A stretch of DNA of 38,404 bases from positions 1-38,404 of IMG/VR virus record IMGVR_UViG_3300045988_089052; one strand, 5' to 3'. Numbering within the stretch: position 1 is the first letter of the stretch; each line of letters starts with the position of its first letter. The notes under the pieces were generated by a model. That model saw only the letters and a program-made list of their open reading frames with translations, searched no databases and had not been told where the DNA came from. Made by a program: the position numbers and the translations under genes. Shown in pieces: positions 1,892 through 30,559 of this stretch. The stretch is from a virus.

Positions 1892-2224
1892 ATGTTTTAT
1901 GACATTTACAAAAAATTGTGTGAAGACAATGGAGAGAAACCATATCAATTACCATTAAAGTTGGGCGCAAAAAGCAATAGTGTAGTTGCACAATGGAAAA
2001 ATGGATCGTTGCCAAGACCAGAAATGATTCAAAAAATCGCAGATTATTTTAATGTTTCTGTTGAGTATCTGATGTTTGGGGAAGTAAATAAAGAAAAGCC
2101 CGTACCGATCAGGCACGAGCTTAAAGAAAGTGATATGGAAATTTTAACGCTTTTAAAAGAAATTAACGAGAAGCAAAAAAAAGCGATAGTCGATATGATA
2201 CATACATTTATAGAGGAGAATTAA
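1892..2224 (+). CDS. XRE-family HTH repressor (CI-like, short form with no S24 peptidase domain)
   Basis: The ORF track starts it at 1862. I prefer ATG 1892, which has GGAG 9 nt upstream. The HTH is KLGAKSNSVVAQWKNGSLPRPEMIQKIADYFNVSVEYL. Confidence 0.75.
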   Translation: MFYDIYKKLCEDNGEKPYQLPLKLGAKSNSVVAQWKNGSLPRPEMIQKIADYFNVSVEYLMFGEVNKEKPVPIRHELKESDMEILTLLKEINEKQKKAIVDMIHTFIEEN

Positions 2225-2227
2225 TCA

Positions 2228-2533
2228 ATGAAATGGTATGAATTTCATATTCTAAAACAATTAAGCAAAGATGCTGTAAAGGTAAACAAATGGAACAAGA
2301 AAATTATAGATAATCTAAAGCGTTTCGGTTATGTAGACTCTTTAGGTGTCGCACCAAAAGGGCCGGCCAAAGGGAAAGAATGTGTTTTAATAAATGATTT
2401 TGGAGTAGAATATTGGAATAAGATGAAAAAAGAGCAAAAAGAAGATAGAAAATTCTGGATTGCTATCTTGATGAATCCCATATCTGCTATTATTGGAGCT
2501 ATTGCAGGATTCATTATTTCAAATTTTTGTTAA
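2228..2533 (+). CDS. Hypothetical protein with a C-terminal membrane anchor
   Basis: 101 aa, 4 nt after the repressor stop. C-terminal hydrophobic stretch FWIAILMNPISAIIGAIAGFIISNF. Confidence 0.55.
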   Translation: MKWYEFHILKQLSKDAVKVNKWNKKIIDNLKRFGYVDSLGVAPKGPAKGKECVLINDFGVEYWNKMKKEQKEDRKFWIAILMNPISAIIGAIAGFIISNFC

Positions 2534-2878: not shown

Positions 2879-2997
2879 ATGTGCGCCTCCCTTTTTTATT
2901 CTGCCGCATGGAAATATATTACCACAGTTATTAAATGTAAAATACTGGCAAAACACCAAATATTTGAAAAAATTAGAGTGATTTTAACTAAATTTAA

Positions 2998-3045
2998 CAA
3001 CAACCATTCGTTGTACATAGAATTATACAACAACCATTGGTTGTT
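2998..3045. promoter_or_regulatory. Two copies of CAACAACCATT(C/G)GTTGT, each an inverted repeat, 30 bp apart
   Basis: 2998-3014 and 3028-3045. The second is AACAACCA-t-TGGTTGTT with 8-bp perfect arms. They lie between divergent genes 2878(-) and 3144(+). Confidence 0.55.
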
Positions 3046-3143
3046 ATCAATGCATTTTTTGCACAACAAAATTTGTTTGTTTTTTGTGTAAGCAAAAATA
3101 TTGTCCAATAACCAGTACATTTTGATTTGAAGTTGACGAGGCG

Positions 3144-3686
3144 ATGTATATGAAAAAATCTTATTTTGATGGAGGATTATTACAATTAATTGGATGGAAA
3201 ATTCTGGGGTTCCTTGTTACATTTTTTACATTAGGAATTTGTTATCCATGGTCTGTTTGCATGATCTATGGATGGGAAACAAAGCATACCGTTATAAACG
3301 GTAAAAGACTTGGATTTGATGGAAAAGCAATTCAACTTTTTGGCAGCTGGATAAAATGGTTTTTGCTTACTTTTATTACGTTGGGTATATATGGCTTTTG
3401 GGTTGGTATTGCATTAAAAAAATGGAAAGTAAAACATACATATTTTATCGAAAATGAATCCGATTTAAACAAACAACCGGAAACGGTTGAGCTTTGTACA
3501 AATGCAATTCAAACGAATGTTGTTGTCCCGATTGATTTAAATGCTAATTATGAAGGCGACCCAGATGAAAACGATCCATTGCTTAATACCAACCGTACTG
3601 GTTCTATAATTTTTCTCGTATGTCTTATAGTTGCTATTATCATCTGTATTTTTACAATAATAAACATGATTTTACAGCGCATGTAA
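3144..3686 (+). CDS. DUF898/YjgN-like multi-pass membrane protein
   Basis: Repeated hairpin pattern (GWKILGFLVTFFTLGICYPW ... INGKRLGFDG ... WIKWFLLTFITLGIYGFW) plus a C-terminal TM segment. The start may be ATG 3150, which has better SD spacing. Confidence 0.55.
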   Translation: MYMKKSYFDGGLLQLIGWKILGFLVTFFTLGICYPWSVCMIYGWETKHTVINGKRLGFDGKAIQLFGSWIKWFLLTFITLGIYGFWVGIALKKWKVKHTYFIENESDLNKQPETVELCTNAIQTNVVVPIDLNANYEGDPDENDPLLNTNRTGSIIFLVCLIVAIIICIFTIINMILQRM

Positions 3687-3721: not shown

Positions 3722-4972
3722 GTGCTTTGCTCAAGATGCAAAAAAGAAATACCGAATGAAAGCATCTTTTGCAATTGGTGCGGAAAAAGGCAAACGGCTA
3801 TTGAACCAAAACAAAAAAGGAAACGTTTTAAGCGTCCAAATGGAAGCGGCACAATTTCAAAATACAGCGGGGAGCGAAAAAAGCCTTTTGTCGCTCGGCT
3901 TGACGGAAAATTAATTGGTACATTTAGAACATACGAAGAGGCCGACGAAGTTTTAACGGATATTATTGCAAGAAAACAAGCGTGCATGGACGTTATCCTA
4001 AACAAATACATCAGCACATTTACAGATGTTCATAATGCTTTTATACAAAGCAAAGAATACGAAAAAATTGGAGAAAAAGGAAAATACAGTATTGCCTCTG
4101 CATATAAACGATTCGAATCGCTGCATGATAAAGTGTTTACGAAAATCCTTGCTGCTGAATACGAATCCATTATAGATTCAGCGGTGGTATTACCGGCATA
4201 CAAAATTCGAACGCCAGAAGAAATTAAAAAGATGAGCGCAAAGGAACGTGATCGATACAATGCACTTATATCGAAACCGCAGGAACCATTAAGTTACAGT
4301 GCAAAATCGAAACTGAAACAATACATTATTCATTTATATAATACCGCAATATCAAACAAAATTGAAACCGTAAACTATGGTCAAAACATTGTACTTGATA
4401 AAGCCAGTAATAAAATTAAACGCCGAAATTTTACAAAATCTGAAAAAGATCTTCTCTACAAAAATGACAATGATGATATCGTAAAAATCATCCTTATATA
4501 TTTGGAATTAGGATTTCGACTTAACGAATTATTATCATTACCCACATCTCGTATTGATTTTGAAAATGATATCATTCAATGGGGAAGTAAAACAGATGCC
4601 GGAAAGGATAGAATAATCCCGCTTGTAGGTAAAGCACGTGAATATGTAAAATATTTTTATGGAGATGGAAGCCAAAAATTTTTGATTGAGCGCAACGGTA
4701 AGAGAATCCGAGAAGAATATTTTAGAATACATATGTTTTACCCTACGCTTGACCGATTAGGTATTGAATATTCAGACGAAAACAGCCGTTTTAACGTTAT
4801 TACCCCGCACCGAATTAGGCACACATTTGCGGCAGATAGTGTAAAGGCTGGTGTGGCACCAGAGGCGTTAAAAGAGATTATCGGGCATGCACAGTACAGT
4901 ACCACAATCAACAAGTACAACGATGATGTCGATGTCGATTACCTCAAAAAAGAGCTTCAGAAAAAGGGATGA
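3722..4972 (+). CDS. int: Tyrosine integrase with an N-terminal zinc-ribbon (GTG start)
   Basis: The C-terminal catalytic region ITPHRIRHTFAADSV...GHAQYSTTINKY carries the R..H-x-x-R..H..Y signature. The N-terminus is CSRCKKEIPNESIFCNWCG. attP lies immediately downstream. Confidence 0.9.
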   Translation: MLCSRCKKEIPNESIFCNWCGKRQTAIEPKQKRKRFKRPNGSGTISKYSGERKKPFVARLDGKLIGTFRTYEEADEVLTDIIARKQACMDVILNKYISTFTDVHNAFIQSKEYEKIGEKGKYSIASAYKRFESLHDKVFTKILAAEYESIIDSAVVLPAYKIRTPEEIKKMSAKERDRYNALISKPQEPLSYSAKSKLKQYIIHLYNTAISNKIETVNYGQNIVLDKASNKIKRRNFTKSEKDLLYKNDNDDIVKIILIYLELGFRLNELLSLPTSRIDFENDIIQWGSKTDAGKDRIIPLVGKAREYVKYFYGDGSQKFLIERNGKRIREEYFRIHMFYPTLDRLGIEYSDENSRFNVITPHRIRHTFAADSVKAGVAPEALKEIIGHAQYSTTINKYNDDVDVDYLKKELQKKG

Positions 4973-20848: not shown

Positions 20849-21847
20849 TTAAGCTCCGGTTTTAGGCGATGTAGCAATCCCCTTAAGTACCGCCGCTTTA
20901 AGAGTGTTTTTCAGTGCAACGCCAGCCACAAGTTCAACTTCGCCAGTTTTGACCGCCCCCGGGGACATCAAGTCAGGCATATAAGACTGGATTACACTGG
21001 TTCCCGTAGGAGAAATACCGTGGAAACCATCAAGGCCAAGCGACACGGCATAAATCTCGGAAGTGCCGGCAGCAGATGAACTGGCCGCAGTATCCGCCAC
21101 AACATCAACAGTCGCCGAGCCGTTATAGTATTTTCCTGCATCCATCAAGGGAATGCCGTTGTATGTTTCTACATATCGGCCAAAATCATCTTTGGTACGA
21201 TCATAATACCCAGCGCGGCGCGCACATCCACGCACTCTGGTAAGCATTTTGGAGTTCATCAACAGCATTGACGGCGTGCCATCCAGCGCCGTAAGGAACC
21301 CATCCAACTCATCCAGAAAAGCATTGCAGTTTGCATCCAGTTCAGCGGCGTTTGTAAGGCTTACGGCGCTGGTAATTTCATTGGACGTACCAGCCAACAG
21401 TTTCTTAAGGCCGTCAAACGTGTTCGGAATAAACCCAGCGCCGGAAGACGCCGAAGTGCCGTTGATTACAAGATTATGGAAATAATTCGCCGTCGCTTTG
21501 ATTTTCTGCTCCGCCTGGAATGCCAGCTCATCAATTGCGCCGCTCGTGTTCTGTAGCACACGGTCAATCTGGAATGAGCCACCCATAATGATTGCATTTG
21601 TAGTTTTCTTTTCGCGTTTCGCTTCGCCAGCAGTGTATTCGCTGTTAATGGTACGTACTGCCGCCGTGCTGGGAGTTTTCAGCTGAATATACCCATAAGA
21701 CAGGGTAGAACCACCAGTCCCCGGAGAGATACAGTTGTCAAATGTCAAACGATCCAGCAGCAACGAGCTGCGACGAAACATATCAATGACCTGCTGGTCA
21801 ACTTTGTCGGCCATACCGACCTTAGCTTCTGCAAGAGTAATAGGCAT
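20849..21847 (-). CDS. Major capsid protein
   Basis: 332 aa immediately after the scaffold gene. MPITLAEAKVGMADKVDQQVIDMFRRSSLLLDRLTF is typical of a Firmicutes phage capsid family. Confidence 0.8.
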   Translation of the reverse strand: MPITLAEAKVGMADKVDQQVIDMFRRSSLLLDRLTFDNCISPGTGGSTLSYGYIQLKTPSTAAVRTINSEYTAGEAKREKKTTNAIIMGGSFQIDRVLQNTSGAIDELAFQAEQKIKATANYFHNLVINGTSASSGAGFIPNTFDGLKKLLAGTSNEITSAVSLTNAAELDANCNAFLDELDGFLTALDGTPSMLLMNSKMLTRVRGCARRAGYYDRTKDDFGRYVETYNGIPLMDAGKYYNGSATVDVVADTAASSSAAGTSEIYAVSLGLDGFHGISPTGTSVIQSYMPDLMSPGAVKTGEVELVAGVALKNTLKAAVLKGIATSPKTGA

Positions 21848-21854
21848 AATTTAT

Positions 21855-22418
21855 TTATCCTTTCTCGTATTTAACCCGCAAGGCATCTGCAAGATTTTTA
21901 GGCTCTGCGGGGCTTGGATTGTTTGCCGGAGGATTAGGGGTTTTCACTCCATTTGTCGTTTCAACAACAACAAAATCTGCCCATTCTTTTTTTGCGTTTT
22001 CCGTCAATTTTTCGGCATCTTTAATTTTTCCATCTTCGATTTCCAAACTATCAATATCAGATACTTTCAAAATTGCATCAATGCGTTTTTCACTAATCCC
22101 GGCGTTTTTCAAAATTCCACGGTAAGCAGATTCCTTTGCTTCGTGATTTTCTTTTTGTGTCTGTTCGTTTTTGAATTTTTCAAAATCCTCTTTGAGAGCG
22201 TCATATTTGACTTTATAGCTGTCTTTCTTTCCAGCTTCAAGGTCAGCCTGCGCTTTTTCCAGTTGCTTTCGGATATCAGGCAGGACTTTTGCGTCTTCCT
22301 CATACTTTTTCAAGTCAGTCTTTAGGCCATCGACTGTTTCGCTATGTGCTTCGATAATCTGATCGATCTTATCATCCTCGATACCCATAGCTTTCAACAT
22401 TTTTCGTGTAAGTGCCAT
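21855..22418 (-). CDS. Scaffolding protein (GP20-like)
   Basis: ATG 22418 (MALTRKMLKAMGIEDDKIDQIIEAHSETVDGLK...). Highly charged coiled coil. The track start at 22544 runs through terminator hairpins. Confidence 0.7.
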   Translation of the reverse strand: MALTRKMLKAMGIEDDKIDQIIEAHSETVDGLKTDLKKYEEDAKVLPDIRKQLEKAQADLEAGKKDSYKVKYDALKEDFEKFKNEQTQKENHEAKESAYRGILKNAGISEKRIDAILKVSDIDSLEIEDGKIKDAEKLTENAKKEWADFVVVETTNGVKTPNPPANNPSPAEPKNLADALRVKYEKG

Positions 22419-22501
22419 TTCTATCTTCCTTTCCTTTGGCCCCGGTTCCTCGGGGACGATAGTTGTATAAAAACCGCTGTGCTTCGCGGGTTTTACCAAA
22501 C

Positions 22502-22547
22502 AAAAAAAGCGTGGCCACCCACCCATTTCTGGATGAATAACCACGCT
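22502..22547 (-). terminator. Intrinsic terminator after the embedded cassette
   Basis: Minus-strand RNA AGCGUGG-(26 nt)-CCACGCU followed by UUUUUUG. A second, weaker hairpin plus U5 lies at about 22470-22495. Confidence 0.65.
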
Positions 22548-22567
22548 CGGTTGTTACGCAAAAACAC

Positions 22568-22744
22568 TTATTTGCGCCAAACGCTATTTATTTTTGCTGG
22601 TTGGGTATCTTTCTTTATTCTATGCGGGAAATACCCAACCATGCCGCCGTCAGGCGTTTCCTTGTAGACGAAAATGTCGTTCAAATATTCCTGTGTAACA
22701 GGCTTCGGTCTAATAATGAAAGGCTGTTTTTCGCAGAAATTCAT
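22568..22744 (-). CDS. Small basic hypothetical protein (58 aa), missing from the ORF track
   Basis: My own translation: MNFCEKQPFIIRPKPVTQEYLNDIFVYKETPDGGMVGYFPHRIKKDTQPAKINSVWRK. It has an ATGA overlap with the RHH gene. Confidence 0.5.
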   Translation of the reverse strand: MNFCEKQPFIIRPKPVTQEYLNDIFVYKETPDGGMVGYFPHRIKKDTQPAKINSVWRK

Positions 22745-22932
22745 ATGCCTCCCCTTTCAATGCGCTCTCGCAGAACGTCAAGAATAAACGCCTGAACGCT
22801 TTTCCCCGCATCTGCGGCAGCTTTCCTTATTCTTGTTCCTTCTTCTTTGCTTGGCCGTATCATTATGTTGTCCTGCCGCTTTTGGTACTCTCTGACAGCC
22901 TTTTTCTCCGCCTCGGTTCCCTTGTATGGCAT
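22741..22932 (-). CDS. Ribbon-helix-helix (CopG/Arc-type) DNA-binding protein
   Basis: ATG 22932 lies 8 nt after GGAGG. IMIRPSKEEGTRIRKAAADAGKSVQAFILDVLRERIE fits the strand-helix-helix pattern of RHH antitoxins and repressors. Confidence 0.6.
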   Translation of the reverse strand: MPYKGTEAEKKAVREYQKRQDNIMIRPSKEEGTRIRKAAADAGKSVQAFILDVLRERIERGGI

Positions 22933-22971
22933 ACACACCACCTCCGAGTAAAGTATACCATTTTATAAGAT

Positions 22972-23049
22972 ATGAGTAAACTCACAAATTGCACAAATAG
23001 TATGAGTTAACTTTGTATAATCTCACTATTGATTTATGAGTTAACTCAT
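22972..23049. promoter_or_regulatory. Three operator-like sites: ATGAGT-aa-ACTCAC, ATGAGT-ta-ACTTTG and ATGAGT-ta-ACTCAT
   Basis: Sites start at 22972, 23002 and 23036, spaced 30 and 34 bp apart. The third is a perfect 14-bp palindrome. Confidence 0.6.
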
Positions 23050-23057
23050 GGTATACT
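23029..23057 (+). promoter_or_regulatory. Promoter for 23114..23335 with an operator in its spacer
   Basis: TTGATT, 17-nt spacer, TATACT, with a TG extended -10. The 14-bp palindrome at 23036-23049 fills the spacer. Confidence 0.6.
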
Positions 23058-23113
23058 ATAATCACAGTAAGGAAAAGAAACAACGACAGGCCATAGGCCG
23101 GGAGGGAAAGAAA

Positions 23114-23335
23114 ATGAAACTGCAAACTGGTATGGTTATTTCATCTGTAAAGGCTCCTGATACATACAATGAAATTGTTAGGATGTATACGAAAAACGGC
23201 AAGAAAATGGTTGAGGTTTCTCAGTTTAACATTTACGAAGATGATAAAACAGTAATTTTTTACGAAAAAGAACTTTTGCATATGCTGAGACGCGGCCTTG
23301 CTTACGTTGTAAATAACTGGATGAGCAAAAACTAA
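23114..23335 (+). CDS. Small hypothetical protein (73 aa), the only plus-strand gene inside the late region
   Basis: ATG 23114 follows GGGAGGGAAAGAAA. It is followed by a plus-strand terminator. Confidence 0.55.
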   Translation: MKLQTGMVISSVKAPDTYNEIVRMYTKNGKKMVEVSQFNIYEDDKTVIFYEKELLHMLRRGLAYVVNNWMSKN

Positions 23336-23349
23336 TGGTACAAGGCCAT

Positions 23350-23378
23350 CCGCCCCCTAACCGGGGCGGTTTTCGTTT
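23350..23378 (+). terminator. Rho-independent terminator for the plus-strand moron gene
   Basis: CCGCCCC-ctaacc-GGGGCGG followed by TTTTCGTTT. Confidence 0.7.
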
Positions 23379-23701
23379 CCATCAAGCAAGGCAAGAATCA
23401 AAGAGGCAAAAACCTTATTAATATCCATGCTCTTTATACCGGAAATAGCACATTTCATTTTTTCTATATAGTATTTGCTTACCGTTTCGTCTTTTTCCAG
23501 TTTTCGTATTTTTTCTTCGAGCAGTTTTATTTCCTCGCTTTTATAGCCGGATTTCGATTTTTCTTCATCAGGCATACATAGCGTATTGCAAAGCGATCCA
23601 GACGGTACAGAGCAATATTGCCCATCAATAAATTTTGAAAACTGAAGCTGTTGTTCTAAATCTCCCATGCCAATAAAACTTCCAGAAGCCATCATTGACA
23701 T
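23357..23701 (-). CDS. Hypothetical protein
   Basis: 114-aa ORF with AGGAGATGTGATAAAATG. Confidence 0.5.
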   Translation of the reverse strand: MSMMASGSFIGMGDLEQQLQFSKFIDGQYCSVPSGSLCNTLCMPDEEKSKSGYKSEEIKLLEEKIRKLEKDETVSKYYIEKMKCAISGIKSMDINKVFASLILALLDGNENRPG

Positions 23702-23714
23702 TTTATCACATCTC

Positions 23715-23852
23715 CTATCGTTCTTTCACTTCATCCCGCCGCACCCGCACAACCTTCACGCCGTCCTTGACGGGTATCAGCTCCACACGATCGCCTTTTG
23801 CAATCACAGATTCAATTGACTTGATTTTTTCTGGTGTTATCAACTCATCCAT
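23715..23852 (-). CDS. Small hypothetical protein (45 aa), missing from the ORF track
   Basis: My own translation: MDELITPEKIKSIESVIAKGDRVELIPVKDGVKVVRVRRDEVKER. It overlaps the stop of the gp10-like gene by 8 nt. Confidence 0.4.
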   Translation of the reverse strand: MDELITPEKIKSIESVIAKGDRVELIPVKDGVKVVRVRRDEVKER

Positions 23853-24243
23853 TTTTCATCTCATCCTCTATAATATTTCTATACGTTTGCTTGTGGTCTG
23901 CAACGGCAGGCTTGAGAAACGGCTGCGCTGGGTTTCCTCTGGTATAATGCCATTTCCCTTTATCGTCTTGATACACCCATGGAATGGGACGTCCTCCAGA
24001 AGTGTAAATACCAGTCCCCAACTCCACATAAGGGGCATATTCTATGTTAGTTCCGATATATGCCACTGGTTCATCGGTATCCACCTTATGCGAAATGCTA
24101 TTACGGAGATTTCCCGTATCAACCGGGCAAAGCTTCTTTGCATATCCCTCCGCTGTCAATCCGCACTTTGCCAGCGCTTTCAAACAGGATTCTTCAAAGG
24201 CGGAAATGACTTCTTTTGAGTTATCAGTAAAACTAACTTCCAC
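23845..24243 (-). CDS. HK97 gp10-family protein
   Basis: DTGNLRNSISHKV...YIGTNIEYAPYVELGTG matches the gp10-family core motif. Confidence 0.65.
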   Translation of the reverse strand: MEVSFTDNSKEVISAFEESCLKALAKCGLTAEGYAKKLCPVDTGNLRNSISHKVDTDEPVAYIGTNIEYAPYVELGTGIYTSGGRPIPWVYQDDKGKWHYTRGNPAQPFLKPAVADHKQTYRNIIEDEMKNG

Positions 24244-25234
24244 GCTTCCACCTCATCCACTCTTGGTATGTCATGTCTGATATGACCTTATTTTCGCCTG
24301 TCTCCGAATTTCTGGCCCGTCTTTGGGCTTTACTGGCATTTACGTCAGGAAATGACGCAATCAGCGTGCAGCGGCAATTATATATCTCCTCCGGCCTACC
24401 CTGTGGGTCACCGGGAAAGCGGCACCCATTGGAAAATTTTTCGTCTGTCTCGACCTTTTCGCCGTCCAGCATAGCGTGACTGTGGCGGGTGCGCCCGTCC
24501 AGCGTCGCCAGCCACTCCTTTTGTAGCTTAATGCCCATCTTCTGGGCCGCCGTGTAGCTGTCAATGCGTCCCGCGTTCTGCGCCCCCGTCACCGCCGTTC
24601 TGGCCGTCCTGATAGCGCTGTCGCGGTTCATGGTGGGGATTCGGGTCTGCAAATCGTCTGCCAATCCCTTGATGCTCTTGCCTTGCAAAATCCCACTGGT
24701 GACGGTGGAGGTTATCTGCTTCTTTCCATAGGTCAAATCAATGCCACGCTTTACAGCCTTTTTCGGCGGATAATAAGGCATCAAATCAGGCTGTTCCACA
24801 ATCAGGCGCTTTACTGTCTGTTCGTCCCAAAGGTCAAAGCCCACATCGCCGGCCACCTGCTCAATGGTGTAAGCGGCATAGTTGCGATTCAATAAGTAAA
24901 TACCCTGTGTGGCGTCGTTTACATAGGAGACAGCCGTTTCATTGGCCTTAGTCATCCGCTCCGCCACTTTATCCCGCAGAGTCTCAAACCGTTTTCCGCG
25001 CCCGATCTGGGCCAGCCTCCATTGCTTATAGTCCTGCTCCGTCCATTCCCTGCCATTTACGACGGTGCCGATCAGGTCTTTCATTTCCTCGTCCCGCTTA
25101 GCAAAAGATTCAAAATAAGCGTCAACAGTCTCTTGCAATTCATCTCGTGCTTTGCGGTAAATACTAGCAATTCGGCGCTCAAGTTTTTTTAATTCTTCAT
25201 CCGTTAGCTGATGCGCTTTGTCCGGCGTCGGCAT
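24233..25234 (-). CDS. Head morphogenesis protein (SPP1 gp7 / Mu F-like)
   Basis: 333 aa after the portal gene. The C-terminal ...EEIYNCRCTLIA motif is typical of MuF-like minor capsid proteins. Confidence 0.8.
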   Translation of the reverse strand: MPTPDKAHQLTDEELKKLERRIASIYRKARDELQETVDAYFESFAKRDEEMKDLIGTVVNGREWTEQDYKQWRLAQIGRGKRFETLRDKVAERMTKANETAVSYVNDATQGIYLLNRNYAAYTIEQVAGDVGFDLWDEQTVKRLIVEQPDLMPYYPPKKAVKRGIDLTYGKKQITSTVTSGILQGKSIKGLADDLQTRIPTMNRDSAIRTARTAVTGAQNAGRIDSYTAAQKMGIKLQKEWLATLDGRTRHSHAMLDGEKVETDEKFSNGCRFPGDPQGRPEEIYNCRCTLIASFPDVNASKAQRRARNSETGENKVISDMTYQEWMRWKRGS

Positions 25235-26531
25235 TGATATTTACCTCATCGAAGCGTTGCATTTCATCTGCGGCTTTTTGCTTCAAGATTTTATCTGCTG
25301 CATCCGGATCGCCTAGAATTGTGCACGCTTTTTTCGTAATGTACTCATCATCTAAATACGGCGCAGCGAGCATTAAAGTGTTCATTGCTTCTGTCGGATT
25401 GTTGATTTTATTTCGCGTAAAAGTAGGTTTGTCTTCAATGCCTGCGATAGTAAATAGCCCGTTCAGAAATTCCAATACGCAATATTCAAACTGGTCTGCT
25501 TTCAAATCAAGTGGAAGATATGCTGCATCAATTTCCGTTGCCGTTTTTTGCCCGCCTTGCAAAGATGTTACATTAAGAGCTTGGAAGTCGTTATACATAT
25601 CTTGCTCCAAACGCTCTAAATATGCTATACGAGATTCATAAGGGATATCAATTGTGTGCGGTTCAATCTCTGCTCCAGCCCCTGTATCTGTTACTACGGC
25701 GGCCCTAGTTGTTTTTACACGATCAAGGAATTTGGCAACGTCTAGATCATCCATTCCGCCTGCGTTTTTTATCAACCAGTAAACTTGTGAAACATCATCC
25801 AAATCATTCGCAAATCCGCTTTTTATCAGGTCGTATGCGTCTATATTTTCCCTCAAACCAATAAGCTCACTTTGCCTATGAGGATTTCCCCAAAACGGTA
25901 TAATCGGGAAACCCGGATAGTTTTTCCCGTCAACAATTTCAGGATTATCGACAGCACTTGCCCTTGTAATTAAAATATATGGCCTTTTTTCTTCTTTCAC
26001 GGTCATATCTTTGTTTTTCAACTTAATATATTCTGTGTACCCATCAAGCTCGTACAATGTGGCGCGCAATGGTTTATCTGCATCAACTTGCCAATATCGT
26101 ATACCAGCCATGAGTGCTCCGTTTTCTTCATCATACAACGGTACAAATTCGGTCAGTTTGAACACTTCTAAATGATCATTATTCCAAAACCCAAATGATA
26201 CACCCTGTACTAAAGCGTTACGTCCCGCTTTCTGAATTACGTTATCAAAATTGCTTCCAAGCTTTTCTTTGTTGCTCTTTTTTTCAAGCGTAACGCCATT
26301 CCCAAGCAAATACTGGTTTTCCTGTGTAACGAACCGATTAAAAAAGTTAGACGCCATTTTGTAATTAGCACTGTAATTATCCGGCACAGCTTTACCGCTC
26401 ATGGTATAAAGCAGTTTTTGGTACGACATGATTGTTATGTTTCTCTGCCTATCGTATTCTTCGGCGTCTGCTGCGATACGATACATCGTTGATGTTTTAT
26501 GCTCTTTTATTGCAGCTTCAATAAAAGACAT
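25197..26531 (-). CDS. Portal protein (SPP1 gp6-like)
   Basis: 444 aa directly downstream of terL. Size and sequence character fit a portal protein. Confidence 0.8.
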   Translation of the reverse strand: MSFIEAAIKEHKTSTMYRIAADAEEYDRQRNITIMSYQKLLYTMSGKAVPDNYSANYKMASNFFNRFVTQENQYLLGNGVTLEKKSNKEKLGSNFDNVIQKAGRNALVQGVSFGFWNNDHLEVFKLTEFVPLYDEENGALMAGIRYWQVDADKPLRATLYELDGYTEYIKLKNKDMTVKEEKRPYILITRASAVDNPEIVDGKNYPGFPIIPFWGNPHRQSELIGLRENIDAYDLIKSGFANDLDDVSQVYWLIKNAGGMDDLDVAKFLDRVKTTRAAVVTDTGAGAEIEPHTIDIPYESRIAYLERLEQDMYNDFQALNVTSLQGGQKTATEIDAAYLPLDLKADQFEYCVLEFLNGLFTIAGIEDKPTFTRNKINNPTEAMNTLMLAAPYLDDEYITKKACTILGDPDAADKILKQKAADEMQRFDEVNINADAGQSASANG

Positions 26532-28342: not shown

Positions 28343-28419
28343 TGGAGAAAACGGGATTTGAACCCGTGAACGCTACCAGGCTATACCTTTAAGCTGCTGT
28401 GCCGCCCAGCTCTTTCTCC
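28343..28419 (-). ncRNA. tRNA-like element without a canonical anticodon arm
   Basis: Acceptor stem GGAGAAA/TTTCTCC (7 bp). D arm GCTG-GGCGGCA-CAGC. T arm ACGGG-TTCAAAT-CCCGT. Discriminator A, with no encoded CCA. The 23 nt in the anticodon position form only GCU/AGC plus a mini-hairpin AGGU-aua-GCCU. Confidence 0.5.
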
Positions 28420-30278: not shown

Positions 30279-30559
30279 GCCGGGGCCTCCTTAAGCCTGT
30301 TTGCCAGCCTGCGCACCTTGTACCTTCTGCGATTTTCAACAGCTTCAAAGCACTCGTACATCATACAGAGTTGTTCCAACATGATGGATACGTCCGCGAT
30401 CTCGTCAACGATGGCATCCGTTGCCGCTGGCTTTTCGTTCACGCCGGCGCGACGCATTTTACAAATCGCCTTAATGAGTTCGCTCATTTCTTCGATGGCT
30501 ACATCCTCTTGCGCGGTCTGGCCGTATGTAAGGATTGCCTTTTCAAATACTTCTTTCAC
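30266..30559 (-). CDS. MazG-like nucleotide pyrophosphohydrolase
   Basis: 97 aa, all-helical, with the acidic motifs EDVAIEEMSELIKAI and DEIADV typical of small MazG-family proteins. Confidence 0.55.
   Translation of the reverse strand: MKEVFEKAILTYGQTAQEDVAIEEMSELIKAICKMRRAGVNEKPAATDAIVDEIADVSIMLEQLCMMYECFEAVENRRRYKVRRLANRLKEAPACSK

Follow-up and report, generated by a model that had tools for sequence, protein, structure and literature searches.

We analyzed a 38,404-nucleotide stretch of viral DNA, positions 1 to 38,404 of IMG/VR record IMGVR_UViG_3300045988_089052 (hereafter, the window), which is a temperate siphophage genome or prophage. Our subject is a small bidirectional cassette at 22502–23378. 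Three small genes lie in it, and open reading frame (ORF) calls put each of them at, or a few bases from, the position given in the original prediction made from this DNA: a gene for a ribbon-helix-helix (RHH) protein, a 58-amino-acid (aa) ORF directly behind it, and a divergent 73-aa gene, which we call the cargo. The gene order obtained by family matches also agreed with the predicted location, inside a minus-strand structural operon with a 114-aa gene on one side and the scaffold gene on the other. We think it probable that the region is one allele of a repressor-controlled, hypervariable and swappable slot for accessory genes, widespread among temperate phages of Oscillospiraceae-type gut Clostridia, and that its sequence encodes an Aca-like autorepressor circuit.

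Genes of the cassette

The RHH gene (22741..22932, minus strand) encodes 63 aa with an N-terminal helical extension. Its product had been called an RHH protein, and the family matches consistently agreed, all of them falling below curated thresholds. Weaker than a NikA-like Pfam match considered further on were sub-threshold Pfam matches to the RHH domains of TacA, HicB and FitA. The PHROGs match was to phrog_13890, which is Arc-like, and a profile search of the PDB gave weak matches to a DUF1778 antitoxin RHH domain and to Arc (E = 0.08–0.4; Arc E = 0.43). Every RHH-type match fell on the same 35–45 residues, where the pattern sought was a beta-strand, a helix, a G-x-S turn and a helix. Family PF21983 is recorded for many homologues of the protein, and the gene showed dN = 0.05 with dS saturated. 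We concluded that the 63-aa protein is very probably an RHH DNA-binding protein.

The 58-aa ORF (22568..22744, minus strand, by ORF call; stop codon at 22568–22570) was predicted to be translationally coupled to the RHH gene. This proved correct: the RHH stop codon overlaps the 58-aa start as ATGA, a strong Shine-Dalgarno (SD) sequence, AAGGGGAGG, lies 4–5 nt upstream, and the product is basic (isoelectric point 9.5). By codon usage the 58-aa frame ranked first of the six, weakly (+0.08 per codon) and at a level comparable to the RHH gene. The protein matched only itself among 5.8 billion protein clusters, and nine contigs, all of this phage, carry identical copies; tblastn against phages found no match, and Pfam, PHROGs, PADLOC and NCBIfam held none. 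Its single-sequence AlphaFold2 (AF2) model had a mean predicted local distance difference test score (pLDDT) of 62, too poor for a fold search. The last ~9 codons fall in backbone-homologous DNA, and the stop codon sits in the loop of a hairpin (hairpin 0, below). Because of the strong SD, the ATGA coupling and the top-of-six codon usage, the ORF is plausible as a real gene; it is an ORFan limited to this phage lineage.

The cargo gene (23114..23335, plus strand) is supported by its ORF call, by selection and by structure modeling. Its dN/dS of 0.08–0.16 indicates strong purifying selection, and the AF2 model (pLDDT 82) shows a four- or five-stranded sheet and one helix; for both reasons we take the ORF to be a real gene. 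As modeled, the 73-aa protein appears to be a small beta-rich member of a rare family. Only six close homologues were found among the 5.8 billion clusters, and a profile search of 1.84 billion representatives gave 12 matches, one of them spurious (eukaryotic repeat protein P0015). The 73-aa protein had no match in Pfam, PHROGs, PADLOC or NCBIfam, so that, as originally stated for both small proteins, neither is recognizable. Nothing was returned by a profile search of PDB sequences or by tblastn against GenBank phages. The fold comparison proposed in the original prediction was possible for the 73-aa model and not for the 58-aa model, and it gave no significant match: Foldseek found nothing below E = 0.1 in the PDB, and its BFVD matches (E ≥ 3.6e-3) were limited to small, uncharacterised proteins of phages. 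One BFVD row, a KTSC-domain fusion protein, raised a resemblance to KTSC that we dropped, since Pfam gave no KTSC match.

The 73-aa protein has a grand average of hydropathy (gravy) of −0.40 and no transmembrane or signal features. Among related loci, which carry L numbers here, its gene recurs at the same site in L008 (with a Phage_cap_E capsid) and L014 (with an intein-containing MuF gene), divergent from an RHH homologue in both. It is also found in two unrelated contexts, L015 and L028, beside helix-turn-helix (HTH) genes; in L015 the homologue lies within a small-gene operon adjoining the lysis module. A locus search with a wider 73-aa alignment found one Oscillospiraceae metagenome-assembled genome and none in IMG/VR.

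Promoters and putative operators

Two sigma-70-type promoters were predicted by consensus between the divergent genes. They are mirror images of each other, both with extended −10 elements. The RHH-gene promoter (22952..22980, minus strand) is TTTACT-17-TATACT with a TG extension (TTTACT-17-TGGTATACT), and the cargo promoter (23029..23057, plus strand) is TTGATT-17-TATACT, also with a TG extension (TTGATT-17-TGGTATACT). The layout of the RHH promoter is conserved in L029, L037 and L045. Equivalents of the cargo promoter are TTGACA-17-TATACT in L014 and TTGCAG-17-TATATT in L008.

The sequence TATGAGTTAACT occurs three times in this region, at 22971, 23001 and 23035 (spacings of 30 and 34 bp), and three putative operators are found here. 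Operator O1 (22972..22985), ATGAGTAAACTCAC, has two mismatches to the palindrome and lies over the −35 of the RHH promoter. O2 (23002..23015), ATGAGTTAACTTTG, has one perfect half-site and lies between the promoters, and O3 (23036..23049), ATGAGTTAACTCAT, a 14-bp palindrome without mismatch, takes up the cargo-promoter spacer. The cargo gene had been credited with a promoter, an operator and a terminator of its own, and we found all three (TTGATT-17-TATACT, O3 in the spacer, and a hairpin at 23350–23378). The rest of the 38-kb window held only two weak operator matches. A copy of the palindrome with two mismatches, ATGAGTTCGCTCAT, is present at 30474–30487 inside a 97-aa minus-strand ORF of the early region; it is probably there by chance, and it would be relevant if the RHH protein has a second target.

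The same three operators occur at the same positions with the RHH class of the window regardless of the cargo (L029, L034, L037, L045). The hierarchy of mismatches (0 for the cargo-promoter site, 3 for the middle site, 2 for the RHH-promoter site) is repeated in the window, L029, L037 and L045. With other RHH classes, the equivalent positions hold ACACGTTAATGTGT in L008, ATCATGCGATTGAT in L014, ATGGTTTAACCAT in L018, and AAGTTAACTCAT or AAGTTAACATAG in L050 and L055. RHH proteins with a DNIMIRP strand go with GTTAA(C)-core operators, the DYFGLRP variant with a GCGATTG core, and the L018 RHH protein with GTTTAAC. The spacer of the cargo promoter was always occupied by an operator (L008, L014, L018 and the window class). 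Because operator sequence covaries with RHH class, the RHH protein is predicted to bind O1–O3, on evidence that is indirect but consistent.

Replacement of the cassette in close relatives

We compared the region with those of close relatives. L016, L017 and L019 are 95–98% identical to the window on both flanks, and in them 22596–23724 is replaced by 368 bp with two same-strand small ORFs. L018 is 96–99% identical on both sides and replaces only 22571–23349; there, another RHH gene (60 aa) stands with a control region whose operators are ATGGTTTAACCAT and with divergent cargo of 41 aa and 65 aa. Dulem virus 33 has the same gene order and nothing between the homologue of a 45-aa gene and the scaffold gene. 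The 114-aa gene (23357..23701, minus strand), which lies outside the unit that is exchanged with RHH gene and cargo, is itself variable: it is present in L018 and L014, and missing from L016, L017, L019 and Dulem virus 33.

Flavonifractor phage Chenonceau (L001) has at the same site an RHH remnant truncated by GIY-YIG, an HTH regulator, unannotated plus-strand ORFs of 37 aa and 65 aa, and the same terminator. Within Chenonceau 2988–3640, a GIY-YIG homing-endonuclease ORF (3167–3640, Pfam E = 2.6e-5) abuts the RHH homologue, whose frame extends upstream of the annotated ATG without a start codon. The deposited annotation gives a 36-aa 'Arc-like repressor', misses the 37-aa and 65-aa plus-strand ORFs and calls antisense ORFs, and the paper describing Chenonceau says nothing on this region.

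Because the replacement breakpoints fall at hairpin 0 and hairpin 1 on the left and at the plus-strand terminator on the right, the exchange unit appears to be 22571–23349, bounded by two terminator structures. The GC content of the cassette is 0.37, versus 0.43–0.52 in the flanks. The original prediction described a moron inside the structural operon, and the comparison upheld this: the cassette is absent or replaced in near-identical phages, has its own promoters and plus-strand terminator, and is lower in GC. Judged by these features, it is evidently a moron-like accessory module.

The plus-strand terminator (23350..23378) was predicted from structure as a GC-rich hairpin at 23350–23369 followed by UUUUCGUUU. 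Its sequence runs into the 3' end of the convergent 114-aa gene, and read on the minus strand the hairpin lacks a U-tract. Chenonceau has a 93% identical copy, and L018 and L045 have the terminator as well. The terminator sequence at 23357–23378 is embedded in the final codons of the convergent gene (ENRPG and the stop codon), with equivalents in L014, L018, L028 and L045, and the motif (N/K)ENRP(G/D) is kept in otherwise dissimilar convergent proteins, apparently because of the terminator.

On the minus strand, a strong intrinsic terminator does follow the 58-aa gene, as was claimed. This is hairpin 1 (22507..22548), a 19-bp stem followed by U7 (−30.3 kcal/mol, z = −6.6). It does not belong to the cassette alone, since other phages also have it, their stems differing by compensatory changes: Dulem virus 33 and L016, which are cassette-free, and L008, L014, L018 and Chenonceau. 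By this comparison, the minus-strand terminator is evidently a backbone part of the scaffold-gene leader and not cargo. That is, because the cassette uses a resident leader terminator also kept by cassette-free relatives, it is not fully self-contained, contrary to the original description; its promoters, operators and plus-strand terminator are its own.

Census of RHH loci

Homologues of the RHH protein formed 286 clusters, among which P0041 was found on 203 contigs and P0096 on 646. Most are solo 59-aa genes, and hairpin 0 begins ~15 nt past their stop codon. We sampled 21 places for three close RHH homologues. In all 21 the RHH gene shares the strand of the late operon and is followed immediately by a scaffold or capsid gene, and all 21 have a divergent small ORF ~176 nt upstream of the RHH gene. 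These places span unrelated head modules (SPP1 portal/MuF/gp10; Phage_min_cap2; HK97-type portal with S78 protease and Phage_capsid). More distant homologues precede a TerS-like (terminase small-subunit-like) or PAPS-reductase-like gene, again with divergent cargo. Overall, the late unit following the RHH gene was scaffold or capsid at 37 loci, TerS-like at 8, and an overlapping PAPS-reductase-like gene at 17. In this last subfamily (L070–L080 and L088–L097, from IMG/VR), a 235-aa PAPS-reductase-like gene with a TGKDS motif starts inside the RHH stop codon (gap −1 nt), and the RHH regulator heads a longer operon.

A divergent ORF with ATG and SD, starting 160–222 nt upstream of the RHH gene, was found at 87 of the 97 loci in the census. 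These cargo ORFs are 37–241 aa long and fall into ~29 unrelated clusters. A given cargo can pair with more than one RHH class, and at least 5 cargo families were seen beside a single class (MPYKGT...). Pfam recognized only a J-domain family among the cargo clusters (160–170 aa, with the HPD motif, in L050, L055 and L096).

Directly downstream of the RHH gene is a second position that varies, and in most loci it is empty. It holds the 58-aa ORFan in the window, Lar_restr_allev in L014 and three small ORFs in L045. The L014 gene is an uncalled 66-aa ORF (2147–2347, minus strand) that starts 1 nt past the RHH stop codon and clearly matches the restriction-alleviation family Lar_restr_allev, with 50.2 bits against a cut-off of 28.6. 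Elsewhere this position takes the form of a fusion to the RHH protein, with a Zn-ribbon in P0100 and, in L008 (4470–4829), with a DnaJ-type CxxCxGxG zinc-finger pair. Parts of the DnaJ chaperone thus recur around the RHH regulator in two forms, the zinc finger in L008 and the J-domain as cargo.

By these results the conserved partner of the RHH gene is the divergent promoter and cargo position, not the downstream gene. The conserved core consists of the 59–63-aa RHH gene and a ~180-nt control region with two back-to-back sigma-70-type promoters and three putative operators. The variable parts are the cargo gene or genes divergent from the RHH gene and, optionally, coupled genes directly downstream of it. 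Most likely it is the RHH protein that serves as the slot's conserved regulator, and it is the predicted repressor of both divergent promoters.

Proposed circuit

From this arrangement we propose the following circuit. RHH dimers on the three operators would repress both promoters. With a perfect palindrome in the spacer of the cargo promoter and a weaker site over the −35 of the RHH promoter, repression of the cargo would be tighter than that of the RHH gene. In a newly entered cell free of RHH protein, both promoters would fire, giving a burst of cargo and RHH protein, and the circuit would then close. Such logic would be that of the anti-CRISPR-associated (Aca) autorepressors at anti-CRISPR (Acr) loci. 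The operator hierarchy, with its best site on the cargo promoter, would make for tight steady-state repression and would be easier to reconcile with a transient burst than with constitutive expression in a lysogen.

Late in infection, transcription reading through from the head genes upstream would add RHH protein and collide with transcription of the cargo; read-through into the RHH gene is expected because the hairpin at 23350–23369 has no minus-strand U-tract. The terminator at hairpin 1 would insulate the scaffold and capsid genes from the slot promoter.

The 73-aa and 58-aa products are small, soluble, basic proteins by prediction, and we tentatively suggest, as our leading guess though short of an expectation, that they are protein inhibitors made early in infection for counter-defense or host takeover. 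A wider claim, which we think less likely than not, is that the RHH family is an Aca-like beacon that marks a large reservoir of immediate-early counter-defense or host-takeover genes in temperate gut Oscillospiraceae phages, with the 73-aa and 58-aa proteins as new small inhibitors. If so, cargo would sit at fixed entry points of late transcription units and be exchanged as cassettes between terminator structures. The 97 loci yielded at least 29 cargo families, nearly all of them without a match in Pfam or PHROGs.

Such a beacon would be of use because phages of gut Clostridia are abundant and poorly annotated, with accessory genes that are almost uncharted. Guilt by association with Aca1 opened up the discovery of anti-CRISPRs. 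An RHH gene and operators beside swappable cargo would offer a similar handle, and searching for them would list dozens of candidate families of small effectors in phages of Flavonifractor, Evtepia and other Oscillospiraceae.

Comparison with acr-aca loci

In logic, the loci closest to the slot of the window are acr-aca loci; by analogy the slot would work like an Aca locus, with weak sequence similarity. In both, a small conserved DNA-binding autorepressor, a putative one in the slot, stands beside hypervariable, mostly unannotated small genes, inverted repeats lie inside a promoter, and cargo and regulator are shuffled independently. Moreover, the slot is an accessory island among structural genes, and the acr/aca1 island of Pseudomonas Mu-like phages likewise lies among structural genes. 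That acr/aca1 region has been described as an accessory island (PMC4378225). Bidirectional regulation is documented for Aca11 and Aca13 (PMC12282945), and for the RHH regulator Aca14, repression of its own and of a neighboring anti-defense operon via promoter inverted repeats has been described (bioRxiv 10.64898/2026.07.27.740549). Aca14 and the RHH protein of the window have the same build, an N-terminal helix and then RHH in ~60–67 aa. Using the Aca14 sequence from the supplement of that preprint, we found that the L018 RHH protein is 28% identical to it over 58 aa (pairwise E = 5e-4). The slot differs from acr-aca loci in having three operators where those have one or two, and in its setting: it holds no verified Acr or anti-defense cargo, and the hosts are gut Clostridia.

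Several points weigh against reading the region as a swappable slot under an Aca-like autorepressor. The cargo of known acr-aca loci lies upstream and is co-transcribed with the regulator, whereas that of the window is divergent. BLASTP of the window RHH protein against Aca14 gave no alignment, and hhalign of its profile gave a weak match in the right register (probability 26%, E = 7e-4, 44 columns). Even its membership in the RHH fold is below the curated line, since the NikA-like Pfam match (E = 4.5e-5) scored 23.9 bits against a cut-off of 27. The assignment of operators to the RHH protein is drawn solely from covariation and position, and we infer their rank in strength from the match to the palindrome. 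Near-duplicate metagenomic contigs bias the census, and short cargo ORFs are called imperfectly. Scans with Pfam and PHROGs found no verified anti-defense protein among the cargo; the Lar-like domain in L014 and the J-domains are the only functional hints at a cargo role. Lastly, a role for the cargo in the prophage is possible.

Alternative explanations

That last point leads to the explanation we take most seriously besides our own, although we consider it unlikely: the cassette as a moron expressed in lysogeny, as the original prediction had it. The 73-aa gene, and perhaps the RHH and 58-aa genes too, would benefit the lysogen through superinfection exclusion, anti-phage defense or host fitness, and would be silenced by antisense transcription late in infection. 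Much of the evidence fits. The phage is evidently temperate because it carries a tyrosine integrase (3722–4972) and an HTH protein (1862–2224), and the cargo gene is antisense to the late operon. The cassette has host-type promoters and a terminator of its own, is present or absent among close relatives and is lower in GC, and the 73-aa homologue in L015 stands beside a lysis module, a typical site of lysogenic conversion. The control region points the other way, because a dedicated autorepressor with its best operator on the cargo promoter predicts low steady-state levels of cargo. The cargo also lacks the transmembrane or signal features of a typical exclusion protein (gravy −0.40), and PADLOC gave no match.

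A lambdoid moron, in the concept of Hendrix and Juhala, is a promoter-gene-terminator unit inserted between late genes. The cassette resembles one as an extra transcription unit between structural genes, with its own promoter and terminator, absent from close relatives and different in GC. It differs in having a dedicated repressor and a three-operator switch. Across many lineages the cargo is exchanged but the site, the regulator and the flanks remain conserved, so the region looks like a structured slot and not a one-off insertion.

We consider it improbable that the region is a secondary immunity system of the phage P22 immI type, with the cargo as antirepressor of the main repressor and the RHH protein as a Mnt/Arc-like silencer. 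In P22 immI (mnt-arc-ant, sieA), RHH repressors act on divergent promoters with overlapping operators, and the variable region lies inside the late operon (PMC8022706). The window is similar in having an RHH-run variable region in a late operon and divergent promoters with operators, and the diversity of cargo could mirror a diversity of repressors. However, Pfam and PHROGs scans found nothing Ant-like and no known antirepressor family among the cargo, whose families are mutually unrelated. The window has one RHH gene where P22 has two, and its product is only generically similar to Arc (E = 0.43). Near-identical phages, which presumably share the same main repressor, hold different cargo or none, and this would be unexpected for part of a lysis-lysogeny switch. 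The orientation relative to late transcription is also opposite: the window has its regulator on the late strand and its cargo antisense to it, and in P22 this is reversed.

Could the RHH protein mainly regulate late structural genes (the scaffold/capsid or terminase units), with the divergent ORFs incidental? RHH homologues are indeed always on the late strand with a late unit right after them, and the distant relatives L021, L024 and L027 have a consensus sigma-70 promoter at the same spot before the scaffold gene. We nevertheless judge this quite improbable. L016, L017 and L019 lack the RHH gene although their scaffold and capsid genes are 97–99% identical, a −30 kcal/mol terminator stands between the RHH and scaffold genes, and all three operators are in the divergent control region, with none in the scaffold leader.

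The remaining idea, also from the original prediction, that the RHH and 58-aa genes form a type II toxin-antitoxin or abortive infection pair (RHH antitoxin, coupled 58-aa toxin), is very improbable indeed: the layout recalls RHH toxin-antitoxin systems (TacA/TacT, FitA/FitB, ParD/ParE, CopG-type) in its RHH gene first, its ATGA coupling and its small basic second protein, and TacA, HicB and FitA antitoxins are among the weak RHH matches, but those matches concern the generic DNA-binding fold only, the pair is not conserved, RHH homologues are mostly solo genes whose downstream genes, where present, are unrelated, and the 58-aa ORFan has neither a homologue nor a match to a toxin family in Pfam, PHROGs, PADLOC or NCBIfam. 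A tempting toxin-antitoxin annotation is thereby corrected.

The scaffold leader

The terminator beside the cassette was thus traced to the leader RNA of the scaffold/capsid unit. This leader is conserved and covarying, and may itself be a late-gene control element. We aligned it (22419–22585, minus strand) from the window, L008, L014, L016, L018, Chenonceau and the cassette-free Dulem virus 33. It is a chain of four hairpins with many compensatory changes, found in 18 of the 50 predicted pairs. The elements are, in order, hairpin 0, hairpin 1, hairpin 2 followed by UUUUUAUACAA, and hairpin 3 followed by the SD. Hairpin 0 (22556..22577, minus strand) showed both-sided changes in 6 of its 7 pairs across six phages, and its loop is UAAGYGUU in close relatives. 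Hairpins 1 and 2 are two tandem terminator-like hairpins, and hairpin 3 is a 5'-proximal hairpin next to the SD. Equivalents of the leader lie at 3380–3540 in L002, 3829–4000 in L016, 3849–4000 in L018 and 2818–2985 in L001; in L014 a 53-aa ORF is inserted between hairpins 1 and 2. Rfam had no family in the cassette or in the leader. A consensus search of the stretch from hairpin 1 to the scaffold start codon found no sigma-70 promoter, and a conserved TATACA/TATAAT-like box follows hairpin 2. The leader may be an attenuator, a target of antitermination, or a late promoter with a stabilizing leader for the scaffold/capsid unit.

Neighboring genes

The cassette lies in a long minus-strand structural operon with the order TerS, terminase large subunit (TerL), portal, MuF, gp10-like, 45 aa, 114 aa, cassette, scaffold, major capsid and tail. 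On the minus strand we located an SPP1-type portal gene (25197–26531), a MuF-like gene (24233–25234), an HK97-gp10-like gene (23845–24243), the scaffold gene (21855–22418) and an SU10-type major capsid gene (20849–21847). Directly upstream of the terminase small-subunit gene, Rfam matched a tRNA at 28343–28419 (minus strand; 37.8 bits versus a gathering score of 29); despite this match, ARAGORN called zero tRNAs in the whole window. The head modules of related loci hold further accessories, including a MuF gene fused to an ADP-ribosylating exotoxin domain (L032, 1–1528) and a MuF gene interrupted by an intein (L014, 4728–6539). In L008, an ORF of the Tad2-like (anti-Thoeris) family follows the capsid gene at 1679–1933.

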